From Microgenomates group bacterium (lineage in GTDB: Bacteria; Patescibacteriota; Microgenomatia; PFEM01; JBNASD01): a stretch of 64,000 bases of DNA. Below, piece by piece: positions 16,489 to 44,516 of the stretch (positions within the stretch are counted from its first letter, which is position 1; every line of letters begins with the position of its first letter). The notes beneath the pieces are model-generated. The model did no database searches. It had not been told where the DNA came from and saw only the letters and a program-made list of their open reading frames with translations. The position numbers and the translations under genes are program-made. The stretch covers positions 1,622-65,621 of the forward strand of contig JBNASD010000002.1 in NCBI GenBank assembly GCA_049720225.1, written 5' to 3'.

Positions 16489-17904
<1,416 letters not shown>

Positions 17905-17915
<11 letters not shown>

Positions 17916-24777: not shown

Positions 24778-25231
24778 GGGAGGAAACATAACGATAATCG
24801 ATTTTATGTGTTTGAGGATCTATCCCTAAAGAAGATATCCAGTCTAAAACTTCTTTTTCAATAAGGTTTTTGTCAATTTTATTTTTTATTTTAACTTCAA
24901 GATGTAAAGGAGCAATATAATCAACTAAAAAATTTTGAGTTTCATAAGGAAGATATTCTATTAAAGGAAACTTTATTTTTAGGGAATCTAAAATAGTTTG
25001 AGGGTTATCTCCTTTTCCCTCGGGAGAGAACGTGGGCGAAGGAGTCATTTTTTCTAAAATGGTAGGAGTGGGGGTAAAAGCGGAGAAGGGAGTGGGAGTT
25101 AAAGAGAGAGAGGGAAAAAAGGGAGAAGGAGTTGTTTTTTGATTAGCTATTATTTTCAAAAAAAATAGGATAGAAGCGATAAAAGAAAGACCTAAAATTA
25201 AAAAAAATAAGTTTTTTTTGTTTTTTTTCAT
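24761..25231 (-). CDS. small membrane-anchored protein with Pro/Thr/Ser-rich linker
   Basis: 156 aa; N-terminal TM, low-complexity PTPFSAFTPTPT region; first gene of the secretion-like cluster. Confidence 0.35.
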   Translation of the reverse strand: MKKNKKNLFFLILGLSFIASILFFLKIIANQKTTPSPFFPSLSLTPTPFSAFTPTPTILEKMTPSPTFSPEGKGDNPQTILDSLKIKFPLIEYLPYETQNFLVDYIAPLHLEVKIKNKIDKNLIEKEVLDWISSLGIDPQTHKIDYRYVSSPTPVP

Positions 25232-27963
25232 TGTGGTCTTAAAAATCCGTCAAAATAAACCGGGTTGATTTTAGTTATTTTAATTAATCCGTTTTGATCA
25301 CCAAAAGCCTGCGCCAACCAAATTAAATTATCTTCTTTATTAACAATGATTCCAATATGGCCATATTCTCCCCCCCTTATTACCGCTAAATCTCCAATTG
25401 TCGCTTGTTTGGGATCATTAATTATTATATAACCAGAAGGAAGATTATCAAGATAATCTTTAGCATGTCTTCCACCGCCAGGATCCCTTCCTAAGGCAGC
25501 CATTATCCCTCTTACAAAACCTACACACTGAAGACCCGGTCCGACATTAAAAACAGAATAATGAAATTGCTCAATAATGATTGTTTTAACTTCCTCAGAA
25601 AGATCACTAGCTCGAATACAATTTTCTGTGTCTTCCCATGTGGAAGAATTTACATAATCAATTCCGCATTGATTAAGAATCCAGATAACACTTTCCGCTA
25701 AATGCCCAGCAACACTTGGATCACGAGGAGAAACTGCCGTACCAATATAAGATGGGGTAGTTCCTTTTCCTTCTTCTAAAAAAGCTCCTCCAACGGTAAT
25801 AATGGTTAAAAGAGAAACGCCAGTAATTGCTCCGATACTTCCTGTTGTGGCAATTACCGGTAAGAAAGAGGGAATAGAAATCGAAGATAAAGAAGAAAGA
25901 AATCCGCTAATAGTATTTCCTATTCCCATTAAAAAAGATCCCAATTTTCCTGCCAGAAAACCTAAAAAAGGAGTTCCTTTGCTTAAAATTCCCAATAATA
26001 AAGAAAGAATACCCGCAGTAATTAAAGTTGGCCCTAAGAATGTTCCTAAAGGAAGAAAAAATCCCAATAAAATTAAAGAGGAACCAAAAATAATTCCAAT
26101 CTCAGGAGATTCTTTTATTTTTTTAAAGAACTTTTTAAAAAGAGACGGAAGAGAAGTTAAAATAAAAGTCACTATTCCCCCAAGTGGGGTAGAAAAAAAA
26201 CTAACAATTGTCGAAAGACCGACTTTAATTCCTAATTTTTTAACCCCCCAACTTCCTATTTTGGTTAAAATTTTTATTGCCCCCTGACCTAATAATTTTC
26301 CTATTTTAGTGTTTTTAAAAAACTTCCAAAAAGCCCTTTTTATTTGATAAAAACTTTTTATTTTTCCAAAAGTTAAAATTTTAATTAAAGGATTTTCGGG
26401 AATTTTAATTTTTTGGGTGACGAATTTAATTAAAAAAGACGGTTTTAAGAAAGAAGGAGAATAAAACCTACTAAAAATCTTAAGATAAAAAGGCGATTCT
26501 TGGAAAATAGCTTTTTGGATATTCTTCCAAAACAAAAGCCGCGAACTTTGGGGGTAAATATTTTCAAGGGAAACAACTATTTCTTCTACTATTTTGGGAG
26601 TAAATCCCTTAGCTAAATAAACTAACCCCAAATGTTGTTCTTGATATTCTTGGGGAGCTAAACTAATTAAACCCTGCAGTGGTTTTACTACTAAAGAAAG
26701 AAGAAAGCGTTGAGGGGTAGGTTTAAATTTTAAGAAAAAGAAAGAGACTTTTTCTAAACCTTCTTTGGTGCTCCATGAAGTTACTTTTTGGATGATTCTT
26801 TTTGCAGAAGAAATAAGTCCTTCTGGAGGAACGAAAGGTAAAAGCTCTTCTTCTAAAAAATTTCCTAATTTTTCTGGACCTATAAACTGAGAAAATTTTG
26901 AATGAAAATCAAAAATCCGATTAGTAATTTTTTGAACAAGGATTTTAATTTCTTCAGGAGGTTTTTTTAAGGATAGTTCTTTAATTTCAGAAAAAACAGC
27001 TTCTCTCCACCTTTCTAAGTCTTCCTCAATTAAAATTAAAGCAGGCTCTATTTGTTGAAGAATTTCTTGAGCTACTTCCGGAATTTTTGGGTGAGATAAA
27101 GAAATAGAATCTAAAATTTCTACTAATTTTTGGGAACTTTTTTGGGGAGAACGGGTGGAAATTTCTCCGGTTTTAATTTTTTCGATAATAGCAGAAACTA
27201 TTTTTTGATTAATTTGAGTAATTTCTTCTTGGGATAGGTCATATTTTTTTAAAGATAAATCAACGCCTTGAGATAGATAAGAAAAAAGAGAAGAGGAAAT
27301 TAAAGAGGAGACTGTTATTGGTCGAGAAACAACGGCAACCTTTGCGGCAAGTGGATAGGTAGCGGTAGTGATTTCATCAACAACTTCCTGAGGAGAAAAG
27401 GAAGGAAGGAGTGATTTTAAAACAGGAATAATTATTTCTTCTTTATACCTTTCTAGAGGAGGTTCTCTCTTAAAAAAAGAAGAACTTATTGTTGAGGTAA
27501 TTTTTTCTATACATTCTCTAGCAATTTTTAAAGAAAATATCCTGGCTGTTAACGGGTTAAGTCTTCTTTTTTCAAGAATTTCTTTAATTCTTTGTCGATA
27601 TTCTTGAAAAGAAGAATCAAATCCTAAGACATTTTCTTGGTTTTCTAGATATTCTTCATAAGCCTTTACAATTTCTTGAAGATTTTCTGGTAAATTTCTT
27701 GGAGAGGAAGTTTCTTGAATTAATATTTCATTAATTTTTAAATAAACCCTTTTTAAAAAATCAGGGTCTTTTGGATCAAGTTCTGGAAAAAAATTGGCTA
27801 AATAAAACAAAAGATCAGAAGGTTTTTCTATTTTTATTTTTAATTTTTCTAAAAAAATTTTTATTTCTGGTTGTTGAGAAACTTCCTCAAAAGGTTCTCC
27901 AAAAAGAAGAGTAAAAACTAAAAACTGAAGAATTTGATAAAACTTTTTTTGCTCTTCAGTCAT
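25228..27963 (-). CDS. large membrane protein with C-terminal CHAP (Cys/His amidohydrolase) peptidoglycan-hydrolase domain (PrgK/VirB1-like role)
   Basis: 911 aa; N-terminal region of about 550 aa with no signal peptide, then a block of TM helices (residues about 560-720), then CHAP motifs ...GLQCVGFVRG... and ...GEYGHIGIIV.... Confidence 0.65.
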   Translation of the reverse strand: MTEEQKKFYQILQFLVFTLLFGEPFEEVSQQPEIKIFLEKLKIKIEKPSDLLFYLANFFPELDPKDPDFLKRVYLKINEILIQETSSPRNLPENLQEIVKAYEEYLENQENVLGFDSSFQEYRQRIKEILEKRRLNPLTARIFSLKIARECIEKITSTISSSFFKREPPLERYKEEIIIPVLKSLLPSFSPQEVVDEITTATYPLAAKVAVVSRPITVSSLISSSLFSYLSQGVDLSLKKYDLSQEEITQINQKIVSAIIEKIKTGEISTRSPQKSSQKLVEILDSISLSHPKIPEVAQEILQQIEPALILIEEDLERWREAVFSEIKELSLKKPPEEIKILVQKITNRIFDFHSKFSQFIGPEKLGNFLEEELLPFVPPEGLISSAKRIIQKVTSWSTKEGLEKVSFFFLKFKPTPQRFLLSLVVKPLQGLISLAPQEYQEQHLGLVYLAKGFTPKIVEEIVVSLENIYPQSSRLLFWKNIQKAIFQESPFYLKIFSRFYSPSFLKPSFLIKFVTQKIKIPENPLIKILTFGKIKSFYQIKRAFWKFFKNTKIGKLLGQGAIKILTKIGSWGVKKLGIKVGLSTIVSFFSTPLGGIVTFILTSLPSLFKKFFKKIKESPEIGIIFGSSLILLGFFLPLGTFLGPTLITAGILSLLLGILSKGTPFLGFLAGKLGSFLMGIGNTISGFLSSLSSISIPSFLPVIATTGSIGAITGVSLLTIITVGGAFLEEGKGTTPSYIGTAVSPRDPSVAGHLAESVIWILNQCGIDYVNSSTWEDTENCIRASDLSEEVKTIIIEQFHYSVFNVGPGLQCVGFVRGIMAALGRDPGGGRHAKDYLDNLPSGYIIINDPKQATIGDLAVIRGGEYGHIGIIVNKEDNLIWLAQAFGDQNGLIKITKINPVYFDGFLRPQ

Positions 27964-28023: not shown

Positions 28024-29814
28024 TTAGCGGTTTAAGTTAGTAAAGACTTCTTCTGGTTTAGTAGTTATCAAACGGTGTTCCTCTGGGGAGGAAACCGCTT
28101 TGATGGCGACGTGATTAGCACCAGCAAAAAAGAGTCCCTCGCCGACATTAGCGGAAAGAAGAAAATTTTTTTCTCCTTCGGAAAGGTAGAAAACTTCTCC
28201 TACTTTTTCAATTGAAGCGGGGGATTGTTTCATTAAAATTTGAATTGAAGAATTGGTAACAATGGCCTTTCCTAAATCAGTAGCCAAAAAGTCTTCTACA
28301 TCTTGAGTGATAGTGGTTAAACCTAACCAGTATTTTCTCGCTCTTTTGGCAATGGAATATAAAAAGTTTGCCGAATCAGGATATTTCATTAAATGCCAGG
28401 CTTCGTCAACGACTAGAATTCTTTTTTTCATATCTTTTTTAATTTTTGTCCAAATATAATCAAGGATAATAAACATGGCAATTGGCCGAAGACTTTCTTC
28501 TAATTCTTTAATGGAAAAAACCGTAAAATAGTTTTTAATATCGACATTAGAGGGTTGGTCAAAGATTCCCATAAAGCTTCCTTTAATAAATTTTTCTAAA
28601 CGAACCGCCAATGAATTTGCTTCCGGTTCCTCCATTCCGATTAACACTTTATAAAGATCCTCCATTAAAGGCGGTTCTTTCTTTTGGGTTTCTGGTTCAG
28701 GGGTAATTCCTTTCATTTTGTAAGTGGCAACCAACGCTTTATCTAAAAGCGCTTCTTGAGTAGGGGTAAGATCGCCCATAATTATTTTAAACAAAGAATG
28801 CAAAGAAAGAATTTTTAAACCTAACTCATTTTCTCCCTCCTCATAAACTTGAGAAAGATCAAAGGGATTAATTTTTGCTTGAGAATTAAAACCAAAAGAA
28901 ATATATTCTCCACCGACTGCCTGGGCTAAAGTTTTATACTCATCCTCAGGATCAATAACAATAATTTCTGTGCCAAACATCAAAGAGCGGAGAATTTCTA
29001 GTTTTACTAAATAACTTTTTCCCGATCCTGACTTTCCAAAAACAACCGAATTGGCGTTTTCTAAGGTAAATCGATCGAAAACCACCAACGAACCGTTATG
29101 TTGGTTTATTCCGTATAAAATTCCTTCATTGGCAGTTAGTTCTGAAGAGGTAAAAGGAAAAGTAGTTGCCAAAGAAGTGGTATCCATATTGCGAGTAATC
29201 ATTAATTTGTCCAAACAAGTAGGAATAGTGGTTTTAAATCCATCTTCCATTTGTAAAGTGGCGTGTTTGGAAACAATGAGTAAAGATCCAAGCATTGCCA
29301 CTACTTGTTTGGAAATCTGGTTTAACTCTTCTAAAGAGTTGGCCGGAATAGTGATATAAAGACCAAATTGAAAAAATCTTTCTGCTCCTTTTACCAATTC
29401 TTCTTGAAGTTTTCGGGCGTCTTCTAATTTAGCTAAAGTAGCAGGATCAGGAAGTCTTCCTTTTTCGGTGGTGATTTGAATTTCTGCCTCCATTTCTGTA
29501 ATTTTTCTTCTTAATTCATCCAAAACCCCTTTTGCCTCAACCGGATAAATATACATCGCTATTTCTAAACTGTGATCAAAATTAATTAATGGCCCGAGCC
29601 AATTAGGAGAAACAAAACGAGGATAACCGGCAACAAAAAGAGTCCGAAAATATTTGTTACCAATTTTAATATAATCAAAATCAACTTCAATTGCCGAGGG
29701 GGCAATAATGTCTTTTATAGAAACCAAACCTTGATTAAATTTTTCAAGGTCTTGGTTTTCTTGAGAGTGATTTTCTTCAGCCTTCTTTTTAAAAGAGAAA
29801 AAATTAATTTTCAT
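28024..29814 (-). CDS. type IV secretion VirB4/TrsE/PrgJ-family ATPase
   Basis: 596 aa; Walker A VVFGKSGSGKSY, Walker B ILVVDEAWHLM; N-terminal IAPSAIEVDFDYIKIGNKYFRTLFVAGYP is typical of Gram-positive and CPR VirB4 homologues. Confidence 0.85.
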   Translation of the reverse strand: MKINFFSFKKKAEENHSQENQDLEKFNQGLVSIKDIIAPSAIEVDFDYIKIGNKYFRTLFVAGYPRFVSPNWLGPLINFDHSLEIAMYIYPVEAKGVLDELRRKITEMEAEIQITTEKGRLPDPATLAKLEDARKLQEELVKGAERFFQFGLYITIPANSLEELNQISKQVVAMLGSLLIVSKHATLQMEDGFKTTIPTCLDKLMITRNMDTTSLATTFPFTSSELTANEGILYGINQHNGSLVVFDRFTLENANSVVFGKSGSGKSYLVKLEILRSLMFGTEIIVIDPEDEYKTLAQAVGGEYISFGFNSQAKINPFDLSQVYEEGENELGLKILSLHSLFKIIMGDLTPTQEALLDKALVATYKMKGITPEPETQKKEPPLMEDLYKVLIGMEEPEANSLAVRLEKFIKGSFMGIFDQPSNVDIKNYFTVFSIKELEESLRPIAMFIILDYIWTKIKKDMKKRILVVDEAWHLMKYPDSANFLYSIAKRARKYWLGLTTITQDVEDFLATDLGKAIVTNSSIQILMKQSPASIEKVGEVFYLSEGEKNFLLSANVGEGLFFAGANHVAIKAVSSPEEHRLITTKPEEVFTNLNR

Positions 29815-30700
29815 TTTTATTTAAATCCGGATTTTTAACTAGATTATTAATTTTTTCTAAAACCGCATCAATTGGTTCTGGTTTTGTTGTTTTTTGAACT
29901 TGAGAATTTTGTTTTTCTTCCTGAGAAAAAATTACATTATTTTGGGGAGGAGAATTTGGGGTAACAGAAGGAGAGTTATTTTGAGATTCGGTTGGTTTTT
30001 CTAAAGAAAAATTACGCTGAGGAAGAGTGGCTTCAACCATTGGTTGAGTGTAATATTCGGTTTCTTCGACTTGTTGTCCTGGTGATTCAGGATTATAGAT
30101 TTCAAAAAAAAGCTTAATTAGCTCTTTGGTATCTAATTGTTTTCCTTTAATTCCCAATCGCCGCAAGAGACGAATAATGTGGTCTTTTTTAGGTAAAAGA
30201 TTAATTTTTGCTTTTTGAAGAATATAGTCTTTATCAAAGGGAAGCTTTTTGGAGGTAGGTTTTAAGCTTTGAGTGAGAGTTTTTATTCCGCTAATTTCTA
30301 AAGGACTCATCGGAATTACAATATAAAATTTTTTATCCAAGACATTATTTTTTTTAACTGTCTCTTCGACAAATTGAATATATTTTAAAATTTGATTTTT
30401 AATTAAAGGACGCGTTTCTTTTTCGCCGGTTTTTTTTAGGAGATTAATATAATCGCTAACATCTTTTGGTTGAGTACGGATAACAATTTGGATAGGAAAA
30501 GTTAAAGAATTAAGAAGGGCGGCATAGGCGTAAATCATTGCTTCTTGTTCTTTTTCTGATAAAAGATCGTAATTAATAGCGCTGACGCTTAAAATAACAC
30601 ACGCTCCGCCGTTTTTTAAAAGAACAATTCCCTCGCGGATATCTTCAATTTCTAGGTGGTCTTGGGTGCTGGCGCGAATGGCAATTTGGGCAGGATCCAT
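29804..30700 (-). CDS. VirB4 N-terminal-domain-like protein (possibly a split VirB4) with Q/N/S/P-rich tail
   Basis: 298 aa; HLEIEDIREGIVLLKNGGACVILSVSAINYDLLSEKEQEAMIYAYAALLNSL resembles the CagE/TrbE/VirB4 N-terminal domain pattern; 11-nt overlap with the ATPase gene; C-terminal low-complexity tail. Confidence 0.4.
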   Translation of the reverse strand: MDPAQIAIRASTQDHLEIEDIREGIVLLKNGGACVILSVSAINYDLLSEKEQEAMIYAYAALLNSLTFPIQIVIRTQPKDVSDYINLLKKTGEKETRPLIKNQILKYIQFVEETVKKNNVLDKKFYIVIPMSPLEISGIKTLTQSLKPTSKKLPFDKDYILQKAKINLLPKKDHIIRLLRRLGIKGKQLDTKELIKLFFEIYNPESPGQQVEETEYYTQPMVEATLPQRNFSLEKPTESQNNSPSVTPNSPPQNNVIFSQEEKQNSQVQKTTKPEPIDAVLEKINNLVKNPDLNKNEN

Positions 30701-30701
30701 T

Positions 30702-31796
30702 TTAATTTACTTTTTTTCCTCTAATTTCCAAGGGAGGAACAATTTCTCCCTTTAATTCTATCTTGATTATATCAAACTCATATCCCTCTTTTTCGATTTG
30801 AATTTCATATATGCCATCAGGAAGGGGGGTAACAATTCTAAATTGGCCTAATTTATTAGTTTTTAAGGCTCTTACCGGCATGCCGTTTTTATCTTTTATT
30901 TCAATAAGCGCTCCTTCAATTAATTCGTCGTTTTGATCAAGCACCATCCCGGCAATAATATTAGGATAGGAAGGAGGGGTGGGAATAGGTAATTCTTTGT
31001 TTGTTTTTGGGCTAATTGGTGGTTTTTTTGGTAGTTGAGAAAGTTTGTGATAATAAGAAATTACCGTTTCGATAGGCGGTTTTCCTGGATAGCCATAATA
31101 GGAATAGAAATTTTCGCCAATTCCTCCTGGAGCTACCTCTTCAAGGTCTTTTTCTTTAAGATCGACAAATTTTGGTGATGATTTTTCCTCTTTTGGTTTT
31201 TCAAGGGTAGGCTTTTTAATTGATTGAAAAGAAGGTGGTTGTTCCTTTTTGGTCGGGGTAGAGATAGACGAATAAGATGGTTGTCTTTTTTCAAAAACAT
31301 GATTAATCTTTAAAGAAGAAACCTGGGAGAAAAGAGAAAGAATATTTTCAAGAACTTTTTTTTCTTCATTTTCTTCTTTGGGAAAAGTTTTTGTTTCCAA
31401 ACGATGAAGATATTGCGATAAAGAATTTCGATTAGGAGGTAAGTGGTGATTTTTTTCCTGAGGAAAAGATTTTATTTGGTATCGGAAAATTTCCGGAGTT
31501 TCCGGAGTTTTTTTCCATGTGTATAATGTAGGAGAAAAAACTGACTTAAAAAAAGCAAAAATCCAATTAGGAAGAGGTCTTTCTTCAATTGGTAAAAAAG
31601 CAGAAGCAAAACCAAAAAAAACCGCCCCCGCTGCTAAAAGTCCTTTAAAAAAAGGAAAAATAGGCAAACTCCAAAAGAAAAGGCCAGTTAAAGCTCCTCC
31701 AACTAACCACCCAAATTGTTTTAAAGTCATATCGCCAATAAGGCGAAATTCATAAGAAGAAATCTGTTGGGGTACTGGATGTTGTTGGATGGGCAT
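30702..31796 (-). CDS. PrgI/VirB3-like membrane protein fused to a C-terminal carboxypeptidase-regulatory-like beta-sandwich domain
   Basis: 364 aa; N-terminal SYEFRLIGDMTLKQFGWLVGGALTGLFF plus a second helix resembles the PrgI family found upstream of VirB4 in Gram-positive systems; C-terminus GMVLDQNDELIEGALIEIKDKNG...DGIYEIQIEKEGYEF. Confidence 0.45.
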   Translation of the reverse strand: MPIQQHPVPQQISSYEFRLIGDMTLKQFGWLVGGALTGLFFWSLPIFPFFKGLLAAGAVFFGFASAFLPIEERPLPNWIFAFFKSVFSPTLYTWKKTPETPEIFRYQIKSFPQEKNHHLPPNRNSLSQYLHRLETKTFPKEENEEKKVLENILSLFSQVSSLKINHVFEKRQPSYSSISTPTKKEQPPSFQSIKKPTLEKPKEEKSSPKFVDLKEKDLEEVAPGGIGENFYSYYGYPGKPPIETVISYYHKLSQLPKKPPISPKTNKELPIPTPPSYPNIIAGMVLDQNDELIEGALIEIKDKNGMPVRALKTNKLGQFRIVTPLPDGIYEIQIEKEGYEFDIIKIELKGEIVPPLEIRGKKVN

Positions 31797-33777: not shown

Positions 33778-35280
33778 TTATTTAATAATTCCCAGCGTTC
33801 TTAATGTATTAGCTATTGCATTTCCGATAGCTACTGGTCGAGGAGCAGTTCCGGGAGGATAGGCTTGATATCTTTCTGATATTTGTTGTCCTGTATATTG
33901 AAGTCCGAACCTGCCTGATAACTTAATTGGTCCTAGTGCTTCTCCAATTGCCGTTCCGTATGGGAAAGGTTTAACTTGGAAAGCGTCTCTAATCATATCG
34001 GGAATCTTTGGAAGTAATAAGATTAAGCCTAATCCTAAAATTGCTACCGTTACTCTTCCGTAAAGCCCAATTAAAGGGGGCACCCATATTTGTCCAGCGT
34101 TTATAATAAGAGCGTTGCAAATTAAAAGAAACAAGGCTACTCCTGGAAAAACTGCTAAATTGGCCACTAAGTTTCTAAGCCAATTTTCAAATCCTTTTTG
34201 TCCTGGTAATATTCCCAAAGCAATTTGAAAAGGAGAAAAAATTATTAAAAAAAGAATTGTAACATAAGATTTTATTAAAGAAAGAAGAGTTTTAAAGAAG
34301 GAAATGATTATTATGATTAAAAAAATAATAAGAAAAAACAACGCTCCTGCTAAAGCACCTACACCAGCACCTCCCCCACCAGCCACTATTCCTCCTATAA
34401 TACCTCCTACCGCAGTTGAAGCAACTCCAAGAATTAAAAGAGGGACTAAAAAATTTCCAAATGTACTGGTGAAAGAATTAAATAATCCGCCGGCCCCCCC
34501 TAAAAAAGAATTTTGATAAAATGCTATTCGGTCAGTAGGAAGGAGATTATTAGAAGAAAACACATTGATAATAAAATAAATAAACCAATAAAGAAGGTCA
34601 ATCAAGAAACCAGCAATAGCGTAAGAGAAAGTTACTAAAATTAAGCCAATAACTATTTTTGGGATAGCATTTTGAATAGAAATTACTGTTTGAGGATTGA
34701 TTTTTGCTCGAAACATAATCGCAAAACCAAAAAGGATAAAAACGATAGTAAAAAATAAATAAGAAATATTACGAAAGGCTTTCCACAGTTTTAAAATTGG
34801 TATTAAACCTTGATAACCGCTTCCTTGTTGAGCAAAAACCGGTTTTGCTATTCCTAATTTTTTTCCTAAGTCAGCAAAATAATCAATTGAAGAAGCAGGT
34901 TTTACAATGTAGGTTGCCGCTATTAAATTACTTATAACTCCTAGCACTCCGCCAGGAGAATAGTTATTATAATTAAAACCTCCTCCTCCGCCTCCGCTTG
35001 GTTCATCGCTTAATTTATCTATTTCTTCTAATACTGATTTGGGGATTTCGCCTACCAATATGTTTAAAACCCATCCCATCATTGTTTCCATTACTCCATA
35101 TTCTCCAGCAATCCATTTGCTTAAAGAGATATTGGGGTTTTTTAAAGCTTCATAAAAATTTTTAAGATAACTTCCTATTTTGGGAGGAGAAGTAGGAGTT
35201 TGGGCATTTGCGATTCTAAGGTTGAATAAAAATAAAGATAAAAAAACAAGAACGATAATTAAAAAAAATTTTTTTCTCAT
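33778..35280 (-). CDS. VirB6/TrbL-like polytopic membrane protein
   Basis: 500 aa; signal peptide, multiple TM helices, Gly-rich tracts (GGGGGGF; GGIIGGIVAGGGGAGVGALAGA) typical of TrbL/VirB6 proteins. Confidence 0.6.
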   Translation of the reverse strand: MRKKFFLIIVLVFLSLFLFNLRIANAQTPTSPPKIGSYLKNFYEALKNPNISLSKWIAGEYGVMETMMGWVLNILVGEIPKSVLEEIDKLSDEPSGGGGGGFNYNNYSPGGVLGVISNLIAATYIVKPASSIDYFADLGKKLGIAKPVFAQQGSGYQGLIPILKLWKAFRNISYLFFTIVFILFGFAIMFRAKINPQTVISIQNAIPKIVIGLILVTFSYAIAGFLIDLLYWFIYFIINVFSSNNLLPTDRIAFYQNSFLGGAGGLFNSFTSTFGNFLVPLLILGVASTAVGGIIGGIVAGGGGAGVGALAGALFFLIIFLIIIIISFFKTLLSLIKSYVTILFLIIFSPFQIALGILPGQKGFENWLRNLVANLAVFPGVALFLLICNALIINAGQIWVPPLIGLYGRVTVAILGLGLILLLPKIPDMIRDAFQVKPFPYGTAIGEALGPIKLSGRFGLQYTGQQISERYQAYPPGTAPRPVAIGNAIANTLRTLGIIK

Positions 35281-35331: not shown

Positions 35332-37872
35332 TTATCGAGTTAAAAGGTCATACCAATATTTTAAATTTCTAGGAAAATTAGGGTTAGTAGCAAAACTACA
35401 AGGGGCGGGTTTTCCTTCTGAATATTGACACATAAATTCTTCAAAACTTTGGTTAGCGTAAGGTCGGGTAAATAAACATTCCAGTTGAGAAGAGAGATTA
35501 TTTTTTTCTCCTCCTAAACAACCGAGATCATAAGCATCAACTCCTGATGCTCCTGATTCTTCAATCCATAAAGCAATTACAAAAGCAGGATTCCAACCAT
35601 TGTTAACCGCTTGGTTATACACAAAGTCCCATTGATTGCTTATCTGAGAATCTGGCCAAGAATTTCTAACCATCTCAATTACGTTTTGTTTATTTTCTTC
35701 TTTAATGGTAATTGAGGAATCTCGAAAGGGTAAAGAGTAGTCGAGAACAGAAGCAGAGGAATTCAAAGAAGAGGAATTATAAGGAAGTAACGCTTTTTGC
35801 ACCCAACCAAAAGATTTTTTAACTCCTGCCTGCCCAAAAATTTCTACCAGAATTGGTTTCTCTTTACCTGGAGAAGCTTCAATATATTGGGTTGAATTTT
35901 GAAGGGCATGGGTAAACTTAAAAGCTTCTTGGGCGTCCTCGCTGGGAACTTTGAAAATAGAAAAAACTTCATTTCGAAGATACTGATCTGATTCCCAAGT
36001 ATAAGGAGTTTGAATTTGGGGAGTAATAATGTAGGTTTTTTCGGTATGAAAGGGTAAAATTTGTTGAAGGGCTTCTTCTAACGTTAAACCCAAATCAATA
36101 AGCGACTGTAAAATTCCAGGAGTAGGATTAGAGATTCGATCTTTTAAAAAACATTCGCCAAGAACACAAATTACCTCTGGAAGTAATTTTTCTCCTTGGG
36201 GAAAATATCCTTCACACATTCGAGGGGTAGGGGTAGGCATTGGTGTTCCTCCGCAATTTATAATTTCTCCGGTAGAACCTATTAAACAGCTTGCGCATCC
36301 AGAAAGAAATGGTCGAGGATCTTCTTTACATTGGTGATTAAGGTTAGTAACATTAACACAGATATTAATACTTTCTCCCGGGTTAGCAACAACAGAAATT
36401 GGTCCCGGAAAGGGAGAATAAGTGCATTCGTAAGGAAAAGAGGTTGCTACTGGACCCCACAAGCTACTATAAACCCCCTTTCCGCCTACCGATACAGAAA
36501 GATTTCCTGAAAGGTCAAATAATCCACAATTTGCTTGGGCGTGGAATATCCAACAGACTGAGTATTTATTGCCTCCTTGACGGGATATTTGAGGAGAGAT
36601 ACTCATAGAATAATTATTAGCTTGAGCAAAAAGAGGGTTATTGTTAGTTATATTTTCTCCAAGAACATTTTTTGAATTATTAATTGCCAAAAGGCTGTTT
36701 TCCATGGAGATTATATTGGTTTTTTTAGGAAGAAGCATTTTTGCTAATTCCTCCCCAGTGTTGGCCATTTCTTTCGTCCATTCCGGAGTTTTAAATTCTA
36801 TTTCTTTTTCTACGCTAAACCAATTGTTTGTTCCTTGTTCACAAACTTCATAAGTAATTTTTCCCAAAGAAGACTTTTTTTGAACCACAGGAAAATAATT
36901 AGGGGGGGTGAGTCTTTTTAAAGTTTTTTGATGAAGATGAGAAGCGATTGTTTGATTTTTAGGAAAATCTAATTGAAGTATTTTTAGTAAAGCTTGAATT
37001 GTTTTTGCCGGTTCTTGGGGAGAACCGAACCAAGCACTGATAGTGGCAATAAAAGATTCTCCTTTGGTAATTGGCGCTGCTTTAAATGGTTCATCCGCTT
37101 GACAAGCGCCATATTTTTGAACTTTTTGAACTTTTAGTTTTTTAAGAATGAGGTTTTTAGCTATTACCGGATCAAGCTTTTGAAACCACTCTCGCCAGCG
37201 AGGATCCATAAAAGAGCCGGTATCTCTTATTGCCACTAATAATTCTCCCATTGCCTCTCCGATTCTCATTCCTTCTCCTAAAGCAGGCAAAAATTCGCTT
37301 CCCTCTGCAACTAACTGCCTATAATAATTTAATAAGTTAGAGTCTACTCGAAGGTTTTGAAGATGAATAGTATAACCATTGGCCACTGAATTTTCTGCGG
37401 TGTAATGAAGAACGATACTAGTAGGAGTGGCATAAAGAATAATTACCTCAAGATTATCTCCCAAGTCATAACCTGAAGCAGGAACTAAAACCGCTTGTCC
37501 GGGGGAGGCGGAAAATCCTACTAAAGTAGCCCAATCATATTGCAAAGGAAGATCAGGGGGACGAGGGATTGGACCGCCCACAGTATTAGTTTCCCAATTC
37601 CAGTCATTAACTTGATAAAGATTACTAATAATAGGTTGAGGAGTATTCTCTAAAAGGGTGCTTAATTGGGGAGCTTTAGGGTCAATTGGGTGTTCAAAAG
37701 GGATATATTGAAGTTGACCGGAGATTTGTTGATATCCTCTTATTTCTAAATTTAAATCAGGATGGCTTTGGGGGCAACTTATGTAATCATAGGGTGGATT
37801 ACAATCGGCCAAAACAGGAGAAGAAAGAAAAAATAACCAAACCAAAAAAAGAAAGAAAAATATTTTTTTCAT
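35332..37872 (-). CDS. large secreted Cys-rich protein, possible C-terminal lysozyme-like (SLT-type) domain
   Basis: 846 aa; signal peptide MKKIFFFLFLVWLFFLSSPVLA; many Cys; C-terminal FVIALWIEESGASG...AYDLGCLG weakly resembles the catalytic E-S and G-L-M-Q region of lytic transglycosylases. Confidence 0.45.
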   Translation of the reverse strand: MKKIFFFLFLVWLFFLSSPVLADCNPPYDYISCPQSHPDLNLEIRGYQQISGQLQYIPFEHPIDPKAPQLSTLLENTPQPIISNLYQVNDWNWETNTVGGPIPRPPDLPLQYDWATLVGFSASPGQAVLVPASGYDLGDNLEVIILYATPTSIVLHYTAENSVANGYTIHLQNLRVDSNLLNYYRQLVAEGSEFLPALGEGMRIGEAMGELLVAIRDTGSFMDPRWREWFQKLDPVIAKNLILKKLKVQKVQKYGACQADEPFKAAPITKGESFIATISAWFGSPQEPAKTIQALLKILQLDFPKNQTIASHLHQKTLKRLTPPNYFPVVQKKSSLGKITYEVCEQGTNNWFSVEKEIEFKTPEWTKEMANTGEELAKMLLPKKTNIISMENSLLAINNSKNVLGENITNNNPLFAQANNYSMSISPQISRQGGNKYSVCWIFHAQANCGLFDLSGNLSVSVGGKGVYSSLWGPVATSFPYECTYSPFPGPISVVANPGESINICVNVTNLNHQCKEDPRPFLSGCASCLIGSTGEIINCGGTPMPTPTPRMCEGYFPQGEKLLPEVICVLGECFLKDRISNPTPGILQSLIDLGLTLEEALQQILPFHTEKTYIITPQIQTPYTWESDQYLRNEVFSIFKVPSEDAQEAFKFTHALQNSTQYIEASPGKEKPILVEIFGQAGVKKSFGWVQKALLPYNSSSLNSSASVLDYSLPFRDSSITIKEENKQNVIEMVRNSWPDSQISNQWDFVYNQAVNNGWNPAFVIALWIEESGASGVDAYDLGCLGGEKNNLSSQLECLFTRPYANQSFEEFMCQYSEGKPAPCSFATNPNFPRNLKYWYDLLTR

Positions 37873-38180
37873 TTGGGAATAGTAAAGACGGTAAGATCAA
37901 TTCCGGTAAATTCTTTAATGAAAAGCAAAATAAGCCAGCTTCCCAAAAGAATAACCATTCCCAATATGGCATAAGTGATCGTTTTTTGGGCAGATTCTTT
38001 AGTTTTTGGGTCGCCTCCAGAAGTAAGATATTTAAAACCACCAATTAAAAGCATAATAAAAAGAGCAATTCCGGCTAAACGAATAGCCAGGTTAAGGACA
38101 GATTGAAAAATACATTCTAAACACCAAATTTGCGCTATTTGATCGGGTGCGCACTTTTGCCAACACTCTTGAATTGTCAT
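37869..38180 (-). CDS. T4SS pilin-like protein (VirB2/TrbC-like two-helix protein), paralogue 1
   Basis: 103 aa; motif YLTSGGDPKTKESAQKTITYAILGMVILLGSWLI between two hydrophobic helices. Confidence 0.6.
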   Translation of the reverse strand: MTIQECWQKCAPDQIAQIWCLECIFQSVLNLAIRLAGIALFIMLLIGGFKYLTSGGDPKTKESAQKTITYAILGMVILLGSWLILLFIKEFTGIDLTVFTIPK

Positions 38181-38251
38181 ATTTTTAATTTAAATCAAAA
38201 CCCCCCTTCCGTCAAGGAGGAAGAGGGGAAAATAATTAATTTTTTAAAAAA

Positions 38252-38671
38252 TTAAAGGGTAGGAATAGTTAATGTTAATATACTGACGTTAAAGAATACT
38301 TCGATCAATCTAATAATTGCCCAAGCGGCAAAAACAATTACCAAACCAATTAAAGCGGCAGTAATTGTTCCTTGAGCTTTAGCAGTTGCTTCTTTATCTC
38401 CTCCTGAGGTAATCCATTTTATTCCTCCTAAAACTAAAAAAGCAAAAGCAACCAATGCCGCGATGATAAGAATTAGTCTTATTAAAGCAGAAACCAAATC
38501 AGGAATAGTAAATTTAGCTAAATTTTCAAATCCTGCTCCTGGTTCTAGTTTAATGGTTTGGTCAGCGGCTAAAACGATAGATGTTAAAAAATTCATCCTT
38601 TTCACCTCCCTTCTTAATTTTATATTATAAAAAAGTTTAGGAATTTTTTTCAAGTTTAATCTCCTGGACAA
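38252..38671 (-). CDS. T4SS pilin-like protein, paralogue 2
   Basis: 139 aa; WITSGGDKEATAKAQGTITAALIGLVIVFAAWAI. Confidence 0.6.
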   Translation of the reverse strand: MSRRLNLKKIPKLFYNIKLRREVKRMNFLTSIVLAADQTIKLEPGAGFENLAKFTIPDLVSALIRLILIIAALVAFAFLVLGGIKWITSGGDKEATAKAQGTITAALIGLVIVFAAWAIIRLIEVFFNVSILTLTIPTL

Positions 38672-39258
38672 CTGAGATTTCTTCCGCTTACTCTTCCTTT
38701 TGGATCAGGGGTTTTGCTTCCTCCCAAACAAACATATTGGTGGCTGTCGGCATCGCACCACGGATTTTCATAGGCCCATTTTCCCCCGCGATGGTCACAA
38801 ATACAACGGCAGGATTTATAACAATCTCCTTGGTTATAACCTGCAGGACAGCTATATTCTTGACAAATTTGACTTCGACATTGGTCTAAAGAAGGGAGAG
38901 AAACTTTTCCTCCCGAAGGAGGAGATTGCGAGGGTGGAGGAGTGGTTGGCCAAGGAGAAAAAAATCCTCTAACAAATCTTAAAATTGCCCACGCGGAAAA
39001 AGTAATAATTAGACCAATTAAAGCGGCGGTAATGGTACTTTTAGCTTTTGCGACTGCCTCTTTATCTCCGCCTGAGGTAATCCAGCGAATTCCTCCTATA
39101 AGAAGAAGCAAGATAAAAGCAATCAGGGCAATGGTTAAGGCAAGATTTATTAAATTAGAAACCACTAACTGAATATCTAAATTTATCCAACTTTTAATTG
39201 TTGGTGATGCTTCTAAATATTGCCGAATATCGCTAATCACTACTAAGGTGTTGGCCAT
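38656..39258 (-). CDS. T4SS pilin-like protein with C-terminal Pro-rich linker and Cys-rich domain, paralogue 3
   Basis: 200 aa; WITSGGDKEAVAKAKSTITAALIGLIITFSAWAI followed by TTPPPSQSPPSGG and about 12 Cys. Confidence 0.6.
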   Translation of the reverse strand: MANTLVVISDIRQYLEASPTIKSWINLDIQLVVSNLINLALTIALIAFILLLLIGGIRWITSGGDKEAVAKAKSTITAALIGLIITFSAWAILRFVRGFFSPWPTTPPPSQSPPSGGKVSLPSLDQCRSQICQEYSCPAGYNQGDCYKSCRCICDHRGGKWAYENPWCDADSHQYVCLGGSKTPDPKGRVSGRNLSCPGD

Positions 39259-39668
39259 TCGATTTTTAAAATTTGTAAGAAATCAAAACCCAAGGCTGGC
39301 GCTAAGAAATTTATGATTGCAAAAACCGACATAAAAATCAAAAAACCAATTAGAGCAGAAGTGATTGTTCCTTGGGCCTTGGCCACTTTTTCTTTATCTG
39401 GGCCAGCAGTTAACCAGCGAAAACTTCCCCAAATAAGCATAGCTAAAAGAACAACTCCCACCAATGAGAAAAGAATTTTTAAAGTATTAGCTATTAAAAG
39501 GGCAATGATTTCATGCCCCTCTCCTTTACCTAAATTTGGATTAATAACGGGATTATAAATTCCTTCTGCAGGGAGGAGAGGATTTCCTTCATCGATTCTT
39601 GCTAAAAAATATTTATTGTTAATTGTCGATTTCATTTTATTTTTGGACCTAGCAATGGTATTAACCAT
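39243..39668 (-). CDS. T4SS pilin-like protein, paralogue 4
   Basis: 141 aa; WLTAGPDKEKVAKAQGTITSALIGFLIFMSVFAI. Confidence 0.6.
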   Translation of the reverse strand: MVNTIARSKNKMKSTINNKYFLARIDEGNPLLPAEGIYNPVINPNLGKGEGHEIIALLIANTLKILFSLVGVVLLAMLIWGSFRWLTAGPDKEKVAKAQGTITSALIGFLIFMSVFAIINFLAPALGFDFLQILKIEWPTP

Positions 39669-40030
39669 TGAACCTCTAGAAATTCAAATCCTAATAAAGA
39701 ACTTAACAAAGACATTACGGCATAAGCGAACACAATAATTAATAAGCCAATTAATGCTGAGGTAATTTTTTTGGTAGCATTGGCAGTTTTTTGTTGGTCT
39801 CCTGCGGCAGTCATAAAACTGTAAGCACCAATAATAAATTGAAAAATAAACCAAATACCGGCAATAATAGTCATTACTCCAATAATTCGGGAAATAATGT
39901 CGGTAAAAACCCTAGCCGAAATGATAATGCTTTTTTCTTCGGCTAAAAAAGACCAAGGACCCAAACCTGGTGTATTTTTTCCACCGATTGGGCCTAAATC
40001 ATATTCTTTTGCTAAAAGATTAGAGACCAT
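39632..40030 (-). CDS. T4SS pilin-like protein, paralogue 5
   Basis: 132 aa; FMTAAGDQQKTANATKKITSALIGLLIIVFAYAV. Confidence 0.55.
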   Translation of the reverse strand: MVSNLLAKEYDLGPIGGKNTPGLGPWSFLAEEKSIIISARVFTDIISRIIGVMTIIAGIWFIFQFIIGAYSFMTAAGDQQKTANATKKITSALIGLLIIVFAYAVMSLLSSLLGFEFLEVQWLIPLLGPKIK

Positions 40031-40358
40031 AGATCTTTGGTTTTAAAATGGCGGTTGGATCGCCAAACAATAAATAACCAAAAATAGCCGCTAAAACAAA
40101 TGAGCCTAAAATAAAAAGCAATCCCAACATTGATTGCCAAATTTTTTGCCAGGCGGCCTCCATTTTTTTAGGATCATCGCCTGCCCCTAAAAACCCATAA
40201 CCGGCCAAAATTAAATTAATAAATGCCCAGATTCCCCCGATAACAATTAAAAGCCTAACGAGATTGGTAAAAAAGGGAATTAATCCTGACTGAAAGCCTC
40301 CGTACTTATCATCTGTAAACGGTGGAGGAGGATTAATATTACCAATAATATCTAGCAT
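40020..40358 (-). CDS. T4SS pilin-like protein, paralogue 6 (divergent)
   Basis: 112 aa; FLGAGDDPKKMEAAWQKIWQSMLGLLFILGSFVL. Confidence 0.5.
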   Translation of the reverse strand: MLDIIGNINPPPPFTDDKYGGFQSGLIPFFTNLVRLLIVIGGIWAFINLILAGYGFLGAGDDPKKMEAAWQKIWQSMLGLLFILGSFVLAAIFGYLLFGDPTAILKPKIYGL

Positions 40359-40359
40359 T

Positions 40360-40695
40360 TTAGCGATTAAAAATTTTAATTCCCGTAATCACTTCAATTA
40401 TTTGTATTATCCAATAACTTAAAAAAATAATCAATAACCCTGTTAGGGAAGCGGTAAGAGTTTTTTGCCAGTTTTTGGAAGCTTCTTGATCTCCTTTTCC
40501 GGCATTTATAATAAACATTAAACCAGCAACAAGAACAAGAATAAAAGTAATTACTCCTGCAATAATATAAACATTAGGAAGAATTGCCGAAATAAGACTT
40601 CCTAAACTTTGATATTCAGAAACATTTCCAATTCCTTTGTTGGGTTTTAAAAAAAACTGTTCACCAATATTTACCTGAGCAAGATAATTTTTCAT
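40360..40695 (-). CDS. T4SS pilin-like protein, paralogue 7 (divergent)
   Basis: 111 aa; FIINAGKGDQEASKNWQKTLTASLTGLLIIFLSYWI. Confidence 0.5.
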   Translation of the reverse strand: MKNYLAQVNIGEQFFLKPNKGIGNVSEYQSLGSLISAILPNVYIIAGVITFILVLVAGLMFIINAGKGDQEASKNWQKTLTASLTGLLIIFLSYWIIQIIEVITGIKIFNR

Positions 40696-40754
40696 TTCTT
40701 TAAGTTTAACAATGCCTTTTTAAATAGTCAAATTTTTGCTATAATTTCTGTTTA

Positions 40755-41822
40755 ATGAAGTTTAGTCATTATCTGACTTCTTATATCAATTCCGCTAAAC
40801 CTCTTTTAGATGATTTTTTTGAGGAACAAAAAAATGAAGCCGAAAAAATTTCCCCCTTAGCCGGAGAGATGATTGATTATTATCGCAATTTTATGGAGGG
40901 AGGAAAAATGATTCGGGGGATGTTAACCAAATTGGGTTATGAAATTGCCGGAGGAAAAGAGGAAGAAAAAATTCTTTGGGTTTCTTTATATCCAGAAATC
41001 ATTCATAGTTTTTTGTTAATTCATGATGATATTATGGATGAGGACGAAATAAGAAGGGGAAAACCGACTGCCCATCTTTATTATGCTTTTTTAGGAAGAA
41101 AAAAATATCATTTAAAAGATGCTTCTCACTATGGTTTATCAATGGCGATTGATTTGGGTGATTTAGGAAACTATTTGGCTGGCGAAGCGTTGTTAAAAAG
41201 TAATTTTCCTCCAGAAAAAATATTGGCGTTGATAAAATTGGCCAATCGAATTTTTTTAGATACCGCTTTTGGCCAAGCGTTAGATATTACCGGCGAAGCA
41301 AAGAAAAATTGGAGCAAAAATTATATTTTAAAAATTTTTCTTTTTAAAACCGCCCGTTATTCGGTAGTTGGCCCTTTACAATTTGGAGCAGTTTTGGCGA
41401 ATGCTAATAAAAAATTCTTAAACGCCTTTAAAAATTATGGAGAAGCGGTGGGAATTGCTTTTCAAATTCAGGATGATATTTTGGGAATGTTTGGAGAAGA
41501 AGAAATTGTTGGTAAAGATACCGGAAAAAGGGATATAAAGGAAGGAAAATTAACTTTATTAATTGAAGAAGCTCAAAAAAGAGCTTCACCTGAACAAAAA
41601 TTGTTTCTAAAAAGGGTTTACGGAAAAAGGGATATTTCTTCTAAAGAAGTAAAGGAAGTAAAAGAAATTATCATTAATACCGGTGCTTTAGAATATTGCC
41701 AAAAATATGCTCAAAAGTTGGTAGAAAAAGGAAAAAAATTTATTCCCCAAATTACTCCCTTAAAAGATTTTCAGGAAGTTTTAGAAACTTTTGCTGATTT
41801 TGTAATTGAAAGAAAAAAATGA
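40755..41822 (+). CDS. polyprenyl diphosphate synthase (trans-isoprenyl, IspA/GGPPS family)
   Basis: 355 aa; first Asp-rich motif LIHDDIMDED and second motif FQIQDDILG. Confidence 0.85.
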   Translation: MKFSHYLTSYINSAKPLLDDFFEEQKNEAEKISPLAGEMIDYYRNFMEGGKMIRGMLTKLGYEIAGGKEEEKILWVSLYPEIIHSFLLIHDDIMDEDEIRRGKPTAHLYYAFLGRKKYHLKDASHYGLSMAIDLGDLGNYLAGEALLKSNFPPEKILALIKLANRIFLDTAFGQALDITGEAKKNWSKNYILKIFLFKTARYSVVGPLQFGAVLANANKKFLNAFKNYGEAVGIAFQIQDDILGMFGEEEIVGKDTGKRDIKEGKLTLLIEEAQKRASPEQKLFLKRVYGKRDISSKEVKEVKEIIINTGALEYCQKYAQKLVEKGKKFIPQITPLKDFQEVLETFADFVIERKK

Positions 41823-42322: not shown

Positions 42323-42617
42323 AGAAGGTTATCTTCTTTTGGCAAATACTTACGGATTTTTGGTTCACCCCTATTTAACCTTAAAAAAAATTTCTCAGGA
42401 TCGGTCACAGGGATTGATTTTTTTAAGTTTATGGTTGGGAGGATGGTTGGCGGTAGGAATTTTTTTAGTTTTAGGGAAGTTAATTGTTTGGTTTTTTCCT
42501 GATTTTTGGTGGGTTAAAAAATTTTTTTGGTTAATTGCTTTGGGAGGAGGATTTTTTCTTTTGGTTTTTAGCTTGTATTTAGGTTACTGGTTAGTTATTT
42601 TTTGGAGGAAAAAATGA
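42240..42617 (+). CDS. small polytopic membrane protein, candidate anti-sigma factor
   Basis: Three predicted TM helices directly downstream of the ECF sigma. The track ORF overlaps the sigma gene in another frame; an in-frame TTG at 42339 would give a non-overlapping 93-aa protein. Confidence 0.35.
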   Translation: MKPLKPLNHGFSAPEKLLPKLLLLTILKEGYLLLANTYGFLVHPYLTLKKISQDRSQGLIFLSLWLGGWLAVGIFLVLGKLIVWFFPDFWWVKKFFWLIALGGGFFLLVFSLYLGYWLVIFWRKK

Positions 42618-42832: not shown

Positions 42833-42885
42833 TTTTTCTTTTTGAAGTGCTAAAATTTACCAGTTTAATTAAACAACCAATTTAA

Positions 42886-43620: not shown

Positions 43621-43956
43621 TTAAAATATTGTGATTCCCAATATTACTTCCAAAATTTGAGTGAGCCAGTAGGCTAAAAAAATGATTAAGAAGCCAATTA
43701 AGGCAGAAGTAATTCTTCCTTGGGCTTTTTTGGTTGTTTCCGGATTTCCTCCTGAGGTTAAGAGTTCAAATCCTCCCCAAATTAACATTCCAAACAGAAT
43801 TAAACCGGCAATAATAAACAAATAAGGTAAAAGGGCAGAAATAATTTCTCCTAAGGTTAAATCAGTTTTGCTAAGATCAATTTTTGGCGTAACCGTTGGT
43901 TTTAAGGCGTCTTTTAGTGTTTTAAAATCAATTTGAGCTAAAAGTTTTTTTTCCAT
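43621..43956 (-). CDS. T4SS pilin-like protein, paralogue 8
   Basis: 111 aa; LLTSGGNPETTKKAQGRITSALIGFLIIFLAYWL. Confidence 0.6.
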   Translation of the reverse strand: MEKKLLAQIDFKTLKDALKPTVTPKIDLSKTDLTLGEIISALLPYLFIIAGLILFGMLIWGGFELLTSGGNPETTKKAQGRITSALIGFLIIFLAYWLTQILEVILGITIF

Positions 43957-44516
43957 TATGGTGTACCAAAACCGGGAATATTTAAAATTTTTACCCCAAT
44001 TAATTCTAACAAAAATATTGAAAAAAGAATAAATAAAAGACCACTTAAGGCGGAGGTGATCATTTCTTGACCGGCTTTAACATTTTCGGGATTACCAGCG
44101 GAGGTGAGAATTTTGATTGCCCCAAAAATGATTAACAAAAAACCAATTCCCCCCCCAATACCAATAGCAAATTTTAAAAACCAGACTACAAAACCATTCG
44201 GTTTAATAGGAATACATCCTAAGGCAGTTTGAATTCCTTCTTGATCTTCTCCGTTACAAGCTACCAGCTGCCTGTAGGTAGGTATACAACATTTTGTTGG
44301 TCCTCCTCTTGTAGGTGGGCAGTCTTTTTTTCCAACATCTATTGGTTTGTCCGAAGGACAATTGACTCCTGCAGGACGACATTCGCCTCCAATTTTTCTA
44401 CAATCATTACCCGCCTCAGCCAAAACATTTTTGGGAAATAAAAAGAAAGAAACAATTAAAAATAAATTAAAAAAGATTAAAAAAACTATCTTTTTCATTT
44501 TTAAAAAGTTTAACAT
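43956..44516 (-). CDS. T4SS pilin-like protein with N-terminal Cys-rich domain, paralogue 9
   Basis: 186 aa; signal peptide plus Cys-rich segment (CRKIGGECRPAGVNCPSDKP...CCIPTYRQLVACNG) followed by ILTSAGNPENVKAGQEMITSALSGLLFILFSIFL. Confidence 0.55.
   Translation of the reverse strand: MLNFLKMKKIVFLIFFNLFLIVSFFLFPKNVLAEAGNDCRKIGGECRPAGVNCPSDKPIDVGKKDCPPTRGGPTKCCIPTYRQLVACNGEDQEGIQTALGCIPIKPNGFVVWFLKFAIGIGGGIGFLLIIFGAIKILTSAGNPENVKAGQEMITSALSGLLFILFSIFLLELIGVKILNIPGFGTP

Follow-up and report, generated by a model that had tools for sequence, protein, structure and literature searches.

The window analysed here is a 64,000-nucleotide stretch of a Microgenomates group bacterium (GenBank assembly GCA_049720225.1, contig JBNASD010000002.1, positions 1,622 to 65,621), in which nine small genes had been predicted from the letters alone to encode paralogues of a VirB2/TrbC-like pilin. 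We find that these nine genes are diverged copies of PF18895, a pilin-like family of type IV secretion systems (T4SS), and that eight of them are, on comparison with related loci, an ancient, colinear set of positional orthologues and not a recent expansion. Arrays of this kind have already been published, between 2023 and 2025, and the locus in the window is an instance of them; what is new here, namely a fixed set of eight classes, the fusion of modules to the termini and internal transcription signals, is incremental but testable. The functional reading that we prefer, and to which we give even chances, is that the nine genes encode pilin-like subunits of a chromosomal, origin-proximal, monoderm-type T4SS (resembling mating-pair formation type FATA, MPF-FATA), which would build one VirB4-powered heteromeric wall-spanning or extracellular assembly with class a6 as its bulk.

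Family membership and copy number are directly supported. The coordinates of all nine open reading frames (ORFs) were confirmed, seven in tandem (37869–40695; copies c1 to c7) and two distal (43621–44516; c8 and c9) across a distance of 2.9 kb, all on the minus strand (Table 1). A profile hidden Markov model search matched every copy to Pfam PF18895 (T4SS_pilin), with six reaching the gathering score of 26.6 bits (37.7–47.3 bits, E 2e-12 to 2e-9). The three below the cut-off (c6, c7 and c9; 19.1–24.1 bits) can nevertheless be paired clearly, as positional orthologues, with pilin-like genes of related genomes. All copies but c9 also match NF045849, a pilin-like family of Mycoplasma integrative and conjugative elements (ICEs; E 4e-8 to 3e-3), with a best score of 32.8 bits that lies below the curated equivalog cut-off of 40 bits and so marks them as related but outside the equivalog.

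The shared architecture was likewise predicted correctly. Two hydrophobic helices with a short polar loop between them appear in each of the nine copies in a Kyte-Doolittle hydropathy scan, and the AlphaFold2 (AF2) model of c2 is a confident helical hairpin (helices at residues 31–63 and 68–101, with a predicted local distance difference test score, pLDDT, above 90 in the core). Aligned with one another, the nine copies show the loop and helix-2 signature of the original prediction, with a mean identity of 25% and a maximum of 49% (c2 versus c3). A family alignment of 424 members, from which our profile was also built, shows conservation at the SGGD[KP] loop, at A74, I78-T79 and A81 and at a near-invariant (~100%) glycine in helix 2, and the N- and C-terminal tails vary more than the core.

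That the resemblance is spurious, a likeness of composition among unrelated small hydrophobic proteins or holins, can be regarded as effectively refuted. Three copies do fall under the Pfam cut-off and hydrophobic hairpins draw weak matches to many families, but six copies exceed that cut-off, the SGGD[KP] and invariant-glycine motifs are specific, hundreds of metagenomic contigs contain orthologues, every one annotated PF18895, and synteny with T4SS genes is strict. Holin identity, which the original prediction had itself named as an example of an unrelated family, was rejected, as neither Pfam nor PHROGs returned a holin match or any rival assignment; the lone PHROGs match was to a family of unknown function (E 0.007).

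Positional orthology was assessed against four metagenomic relatives (L001, L002, L003 and L005) and 79 species-level genome loci (L007–L085). The relatives share a gene order that runs from SpoIID through d1 (a signal-peptide pilin with an ectodomain) and d2 to UppS, an extracytoplasmic function (ECF)-type sigma factor and a polyprenyl synthase (other strand), then through a1, a2, a3, a4, a6 and a7 to a large secreted protein, a VirB6-like protein, a conserved opposite-strand gene, a PrgI-like protein, a TrsD-like protein and VirB4. In an all-against-all blastp comparison, every window copy except c3 found its best match in the same-position genes of the four metagenomic relatives (36–83% identity), against 33–49% identity to its own paralogues; the nearest relatives are 46–83% identical in protein, a divergence at which synonymous sites would be saturated. 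Exactly eight pilin-like ORFs were counted in 36 of 46 full-length related loci, and the order d1 d2 a1 a2 a3 a4 a6 a7 dominates. Mean orthologue identity is 42–62% depending on class, versus 27% between paralogues of one genome, and within-array identity across 53 related loci averages 27% and never exceeds 53%. Each class has fixed residues of its own, located inside the helices, such as the class-specific W/Q residues in helix 2 of c6 (class a2).

The ninth copy, c3, most resembles c2, with which it shares 49% of its protein sequence and, over 143 nt, 77% DNA identity, and its class, a5x, is present in only ~7 of the 79 loci; judged from these comparisons, it is a lineage-specific duplicate of class a6 that gained a C-terminal cysteine-rich (Cys-rich) module. 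Many of the Patescibacteria-type locus records in the 79-locus set bear the title ‘uncultured Gammaproteobacteria bacterium’, and there is a single record under each of the names ‘Nevskiaceae’ and ‘Bathyarchaeia archaeon’; records so titled look like mislabelled metagenome-assembled genomes (MAGs).

This pattern bears on the suggestion, made in the original prediction, that the array expanded for antigenic diversification. In its fullest form the idea is that the copies can stand in for one another as the major pilin, that they diversified to vary antigenically or to suit different host strains, and that they are expressed alternately or as a mixture; a published survey likewise prefers host-range versatility or antigenic variation (PMC12102498). 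The low identity between copies (25%), the greater variability of the likely exposed N- and C-terminal tails, and the hypervariability between genomes of the ectodomain modules on d1 and c3 would all be expected under it, and the VirB2 paralogue arrays of Bartonella and Anaplasma, in which several virB2-like genes likewise stand in tandem, are a precedent (cited in PMC12102498). Those arrays, however, are recent lineage-specific expansions read as antigenic variation, whereas the window's paralogues are ancient and positionally conserved: the eight classes correspond one-to-one and in the same order across the 79 species-level genomes, orthologues are much closer than paralogues, and class-specific residues are fixed within the helices and not just in exposed tails. 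Neither near-identical DNA between window copies nor any other sign of gene conversion was found, the packing or overlap of a1 to a4 points to co-expression, and the pilin series of Southlakia epibionticum is essential (PMC10633639). The paralogues are thus old, each is conserved in its own right and their order is kept, a pattern that fits neither a recent expansion nor antigenic variation, and we consider interchangeable major pilins improbable; non-redundant roles do fit, in line with that essentiality.

Table 1. Pilin-like genes, candidate transcription signals and neighbouring secretion genes, in window coordinates (aa, amino acids)
Feature	Position	Strand	Evidence
c9, distal, class d1, 186 aa: signal peptide, 8-Cys ectodomain, pilin core	43956..44516	-	PF18895 20.7 bits
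c8, distal, class d2, 111 aa	43621..43956	-	PF18895 E 2.2e-12; orthologues 62–70% identity
Putative promoter, TTGACT-17-TAAACT, ends 7 nt before c7 ATG	40703..40731	-	Consensus scan and sequence
c7, class a1, 111 aa, first array gene	40360..40695	-	PF18895 19.1 bits; best matches open the array in L001, L002 and L005, 49–71% identity
c6, class a2, 112 aa	40020..40358	-	PF18895 24.1 bits; 83%, 57% and 71% identity to same-position genes in L001, L002 and L005
c5, class a3, 132 aa; 11-nt overlap with c6	39632..40030	-	PF18895 E 2.2e-9; positional orthologues 44–64% identity
c4, class a4	39243..39668	-	PF18895 E 6e-10; orthologues 36–49% identity
c3, extra class a5x, 200 aa	38656..39258	-	PF18895 E 3.5e-10
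Putative promoter, TTGAAA-18-TATAAT (11/12), upstream of c2	38624..38653	-	Best promoter match on this strand, 33.5–45 kb
c2, class a6, 114 aa; ORF extends to TTG at 38671	38252..38596	-	PF18895 E 1.2e-10; identical to NCBI protein P0001
Terminator-like 10-bp GC-rich hairpin, then TTTTGATTT, directly 3' of c2	38201..38228	-	Centroid -18.8 kcal/mol; top terminator-like site in region
Putative promoter, TTGACG-17-TAAATT, ends 6 nt before c1 ATG	38187..38215	-	Consensus scan; -35 box inside hairpin loop
c1, class a7, 103 aa	37869..38180	-	PF18895 E 2.8e-10; orthologues 50–75% identity
Secreted multidomain protein, 846 aa	35332..37872	-	Start overlaps c1 stop (ATGA), apparent translational coupling
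Polytopic membrane protein, 500 aa, candidate VirB6 analogue	33778..35280	-	Weak NF045889 (Mbov_0396 ICE transmembrane protein) match, E 5.6e-4; position conserved
PrgI-like (VirB3-type) protein with CarboxypepD_reg domain	30702..31796	-	Domain search
TrsD/TraC-like protein, equivalent to VirB4 N-terminal part	29804..30700	-	NF041427 E 9.6e-12; PF26593 in orthologues
VirB4-family ATPase, CD1110 type	28024..29814	-	NF045971 419 bits (cut-off 325); PF19044 match
911-aa protein, C-terminal CHAP (cell-wall hydrolase, VirB1-type role)	25228..27963	-	PF05257 27.3 bits

The fusion pattern gives an indication of how the proteins sit in the membrane. Both Cys-rich fusions in the window are as first described: c3 carries, after a TTPPPSQSPP linker, a C-terminal module with 10 Cys that contains the string WAYENPW, and c9 begins with a hydrophobic segment (residues 10–28) bearing a VLA↓EA site, followed by an N-terminal module with 8 Cys. 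Manual inspection of the loci showed that the c3 module recurs in the corresponding copies of L011 and L012; a word-index search with this module returned no match, a result of low sensitivity given its presence in those two loci. Orthologues of d1 range from 89 to 1248 aa and 70% of them have at least four Cys, with a core up to 82% identical and a variable ectodomain; the modules on d1 and on c3 are hypervariable between genomes. Across the related loci extra modules are sporadic but occur on almost every class and at either terminus, most of them Cys-rich and some beta-rich, with the longest carrier reaching 1248 aa, and Cys counts are even in the window's three Cys-bearing copies (c1, c3 and c9). 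Because N-terminal modules always stand behind a signal peptide, and C-terminal ones after Gly- or Pro-rich linkers, the pattern implies that both termini would be extracytoplasmic and the loop cytoplasmic before assembly (N-out/C-out). Classical VirB2-type pilins are understood to share this topology.

Several features of the termini may be recorded alongside. Most classes other than d1 have an N-terminal motif M-x(1-6)-[LI][LI]-A-[QAK] (for example MEKKLLAQ or MKNYLAQ), seen in the window in the copies at 43621–43956, 40360–40695, 39632–40030, 39243–39635 and 38252–38596 and in their orthologues; in its strict form, [LIVF]AQ within the first 15 residues, it is found in 11–45% of sequences per class. 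In class a6 it closes a signal-peptide-like leader (Ala, then Gln, Glu or Asp). The motif may serve for processing, and it recalls the AAA↓Q site of VirB2. At the other end, the window copies have a conserved [LIF]-x-[IL]-P motif 1–4 residues from the C-terminus (TIPTL, TIPK, WPTP, IPGFGTP; for example at 38252–38270 and 37869–37885), and its Pro is nearly invariant in class a6. Residues 1–25 of c1 (37869–38180) hold a CxxxC...CxxC arrangement within the short N-terminal tail, which is shared by the close relatives L003, L014 and L050, not by class a7 overall.

The transcriptional organisation differs from that first proposed. Overlaps of 11–37 nt between adjacent genes had been reported and read as one polycistronic array. 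The 11-nt overlap of c5 and c6 stands, but translation of c2 most likely begins at position 38596, with an ATG that is served by a GGAGGTGA Shine-Dalgarno sequence and is also the start of the NCBI model (P0001, 114 aa); from it the overlap disappears and a gap of 59 nt to the upstream gene is left. An alternative start for c4 at 39635 would give a protein of 130 aa and an ATGA overlap with c5. The reported overlaps are in part a product of longest-ORF calling.

Because of promoter-like elements, a terminator-like hairpin and the spacers, a single polycistron is improbable and the array is probably divided into at least two or three transcription units. The putative promoters and terminator in the window are consensus matches only. 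The 71-nt spacer between c2 and c1 (38252 to 38180) contains a hairpin with a T-run after it; among related loci, a terminator-like hairpin follows class a6 in 10 of 53 and the other classes in 0–4 of 53. At the equivalent place upstream of the c2 orthologue, L003 has TTGACA-17-TATAAT, and of 49 related spacers between a6 and a7, 26 have an element that resembles -35/-10 boxes and ends 6–9 nt ahead of the a7 start, versus 0.6 expected from shuffles. In related loci the gap from a6 to a7 (median 51 nt) exceeds every other in the array. Genes a1 to a4 stand close together or overlap, an arrangement that suggests their co-expression. Promoter-like pairs that stand 6–9 nt before the a7 start and before the first array gene (38187–38215 and 40703–40731 in the window; spacers of L007–L085) were noted in addition, and this placement suggests that the mRNAs of a7 and of the first array gene may be leaderless or near-leaderless.

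Among the eight classes, a6, represented by c2, is the candidate major subunit. No other class is as conserved (62% mean orthologue identity), its Shine-Dalgarno sequence is perfect in the window and in close relatives, and c2 has both the best promoter match of the region upstream and the best terminator-like hairpin downstream. We nominate it because of its conservation, its Shine-Dalgarno sequence, the promoter match, the hairpin and the largest spacer.

The mechanism that we propose from this would run as follows. Each protein would insert as a membrane helical hairpin, with its termini outward and the SGGD[KP] loop in the cytoplasm, and a VirB4-powered machine would extract the subunits into a single heteromeric structure, wall-spanning or extracellular. 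Class a6 (c2) would be the bulk subunit and the remaining classes low-copy specialised subunits with initiation, tip or adaptor roles, among which d1 (c9), together with c3, would show variable Cys-rich modules outward as host-cell contact elements. Of the functional options offered by the original prediction, that of alternative major and minor subunits, some with surface modules, fits the data best. An analogy, and no more than that, is offered by type IV pili and type II secretion pseudopili, in which an abundant subunit is accompanied by conserved, non-interchangeable low-copy paralogues, some with tip domains; those subunits, however, belong to an unrelated family with an N-terminal helix and a globular head, and depend on PilB/PilC and a prepilin peptidase.

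Several points weigh against this mechanism. We know of no filament of these proteins in any Patescibacterium. The heteromeric assembly is a proposal drawn from conservation, and two of the marks of a6 are limited in their spread: a strong Shine-Dalgarno sequence was rejected as a general mark of the class, being confined to close relatives, and a clear terminator follows a6 in only the 10 of 53 loci already mentioned. The thin filaments on a cultured bacterium of the Candidate Phyla Radiation (CPR) are unrelated, immunoglobulin-like Pam pili (bioRxiv 10.64898/2026.03.03.709456). The remaining difficulties concern the relation to classical pilins. The nine copies gave no match to PF04956 at E values up to 1, a PDB profile search found no pilin, and hhalign of the 424-member profile against Agrobacterium tumefaciens VirB2 (verified against PDB entry 8cue) and against a four-sequence VirB2/TrbC alignment (VirB2 and three more homologues from plasmid records) gave a probability of 0.3–0.5%. 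Fold searches with the c2 hairpin model do not discriminate, a helical hairpin being a generic fold.

The prediction of a VirB2/TrbC-like T4SS pilin is therefore upheld as to PF18895 and the T4SS locus, but not as to PF04956 or the hhalign comparison, and ‘VirB2-like’ is an architectural and contextual label, homology not being established by the sequence and fold tests. Like VirB2, TrbC and TraA (T-pilus, F-pilus), the window's proteins are small, with two hydrophobic helices and a short polar loop, both termini predicted to face outward before assembly and a VirB4-containing locus around them, and the a6 leader, ending in Ala before Gln, Glu or Asp, recalls the AAA↓Q site. They differ in having no detectable sequence or profile similarity to the classical proteins; classical systems encode just one pilin, nothing like VirB5 was recognised here, and the organism is monoderm. 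A tblastn search with c2 against 72,556 plasmids gave no match, so that c2 is without close relatives on known plasmids.

The nearest curated relatives are instead the trio Mbov_0395/Mbov_0396/Mbov_0397 of Mycoplasma ICEs (NF045849, NF045889 and NF045975), which stand in the same order of pilin-like protein, membrane protein and VirB4. The window's VirB4 matches NF045975 at 289 bits and its polytopic protein matches NF045889, but the window scores are all below the curated equivalog cut-offs, and the ICEs are single-copy, mobile and conjugative where the window locus is chromosomal, origin-side and multi-copy. This kinship raises the possibility that the gene is native to monoderm T4SSs.

It also feeds the main competing explanation, in which the nine proteins are not filament subunits but small integral membrane components of a channel or assembly platform, acting with the VirB6-like protein. 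The proteins resemble two-helix proteins from ICEs of wall-less Mycoplasma that have no known pili, and their sole curated relatives outside Pfam are those NF045849 ICE proteins, encoded beside NF045889 and VirB4 in the same gene order. They show no detectable homology to solved pilins, Gram-positive T4SSs are generally without pili (PMC10633639, PMC12857230), and the CPR filaments so far resolved are Pam pili (10.64898/2026.03.03.709456). Eight conserved classes, some with secreted Cys- or beta-rich ectodomains (to 1248 aa), nevertheless exceed what a channel would be expected to need, and one class is highly conserved and, reckoning from its sequence signals, strongly expressed, as is typical of a polymerising major subunit. 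We hold the membrane-component explanation to be a possibility of some weight, though an unlikely one.

The subunit reading also draws on the surroundings, since linkage to a T4SS is directly observed: the array lies within an MPF-FATA-like T4SS locus beside dnaA and dnaN in a Microgenomates MAG, with VirB4 ~8 kb and dnaA ~14 kb away; dnaN and dnaA follow the CHAP gene. Scans of ~40 ORFs, part of the window's total, with Pfam or NCBIfam turned up neither a relaxase nor a coupling protein. Microgenomatia have been described as poor in VirB6 (PMC12102498), and the conserved 500-aa polytopic protein, whose sole match is the weak one to NF045889, is a candidate for this missing and highly diverged VirB6. 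The 846-aa secreted protein keeps its position in all related loci (546–1089 aa), and its AF2 model (pLDDT 80) has beta-sandwich domains and a C-terminal helical domain. It gave no sequence match in Pfam, NCBIfam or the PDB, and Foldseek returned only weak beta-sandwich matches that led to no assignment; a lytic transglycosylase at its C-terminus, considered from an EES motif, found no support. Its residues ~35–235 form a module present in many other CPR proteins, some with cellulase, beta-helix or FGE-sulfatase domains.

Three further observations concern the neighbourhood. Between the two pilin groups, the plus-strand region 40755–43605 encodes a polyprenyl synthase, a sigma factor of the ECF type next to a membrane protein, and UppS, an arrangement conserved in related genomes. 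In L002 the VirB4 gene (17622–20369) carries an intein with a LAGLIDADG endonuclease (PF14890, PF14528), and in L005 an inserted HEPN/nucleotidyltransferase pair (18818–19551) separates the VirB6-side genes from the PrgI-like gene.

Our results can be set against two published descriptions. Quinonero-Coronel et al. (2025) surveyed 3,035 Patescibacteria genomes and reported 441 VirB2-like arrays of 2–11 genes, enriched in Microgenomatia and Saccharimonadia, with an identity of 25% on average and 54% at most, near virB4 and often near dnaA (PMC12102498); a 2025 review restates the findings on pilin arrays (PMC12857230). With tandem PF18895/PF04956-type genes near virB4 and dnaA in both, 7+2 genes in the window at 25% mean and 49% maximum identity, and linkage to an MPF-FATA-type virB4 with TrsD and PrgI, nothing essential differs. 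The survey does not report the eight-class positional orthology, the ectodomain fusions or the internal transcription signals, and our comparison argues against the host-range or antigenic reading that it prefers. Wang et al. (2023) found by transposon sequencing an essential series of predicted pilins in an unusual T4SS of the Saccharibacterium S. epibionticum (PMC10633639). Strain ML1 has six structurally similar, sequence-divergent pilin-like genes in a Gram-positive-type T4SS cluster without a recognisable relaxase or coupling protein, and these genes are essential for epibiotic growth. The ML1 series differs in belonging to Saccharimonadia and in having six copies against 8+1, and we liken it to the window by description, not by orthology.

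Taken to its furthest extent, the subunit reading would have eight non-interchangeable VirB2-like classes, one bulk and seven specialised, forming a single heteromeric structure whose termini act as a scaffold into which rapidly evolving, disulfide-rich modules for host contact are plugged, a proposal that we put forward only tentatively and think doubtful as a whole. If true, it would describe a pilus or conduit architecture without counterpart among known T4SSs, which have one pilin plus VirB5, and, as its relatives in Mycoplasma ICEs suggest, the pilin-like gene would be an ancestral part of monoderm MPF-FATA systems, not borrowed from diderms. In the sole Patescibacterium tested, neither the T4SS nor its pilin series is dispensable for epibiotic life, and if the copies are fixed ancient classes, the working hypothesis for such arrays moves from variation to division of labour in one machine. 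That shift would offer concrete targets: a6 as the bulk subunit, and d1 with the other module-bearing copies as candidates for host contact.

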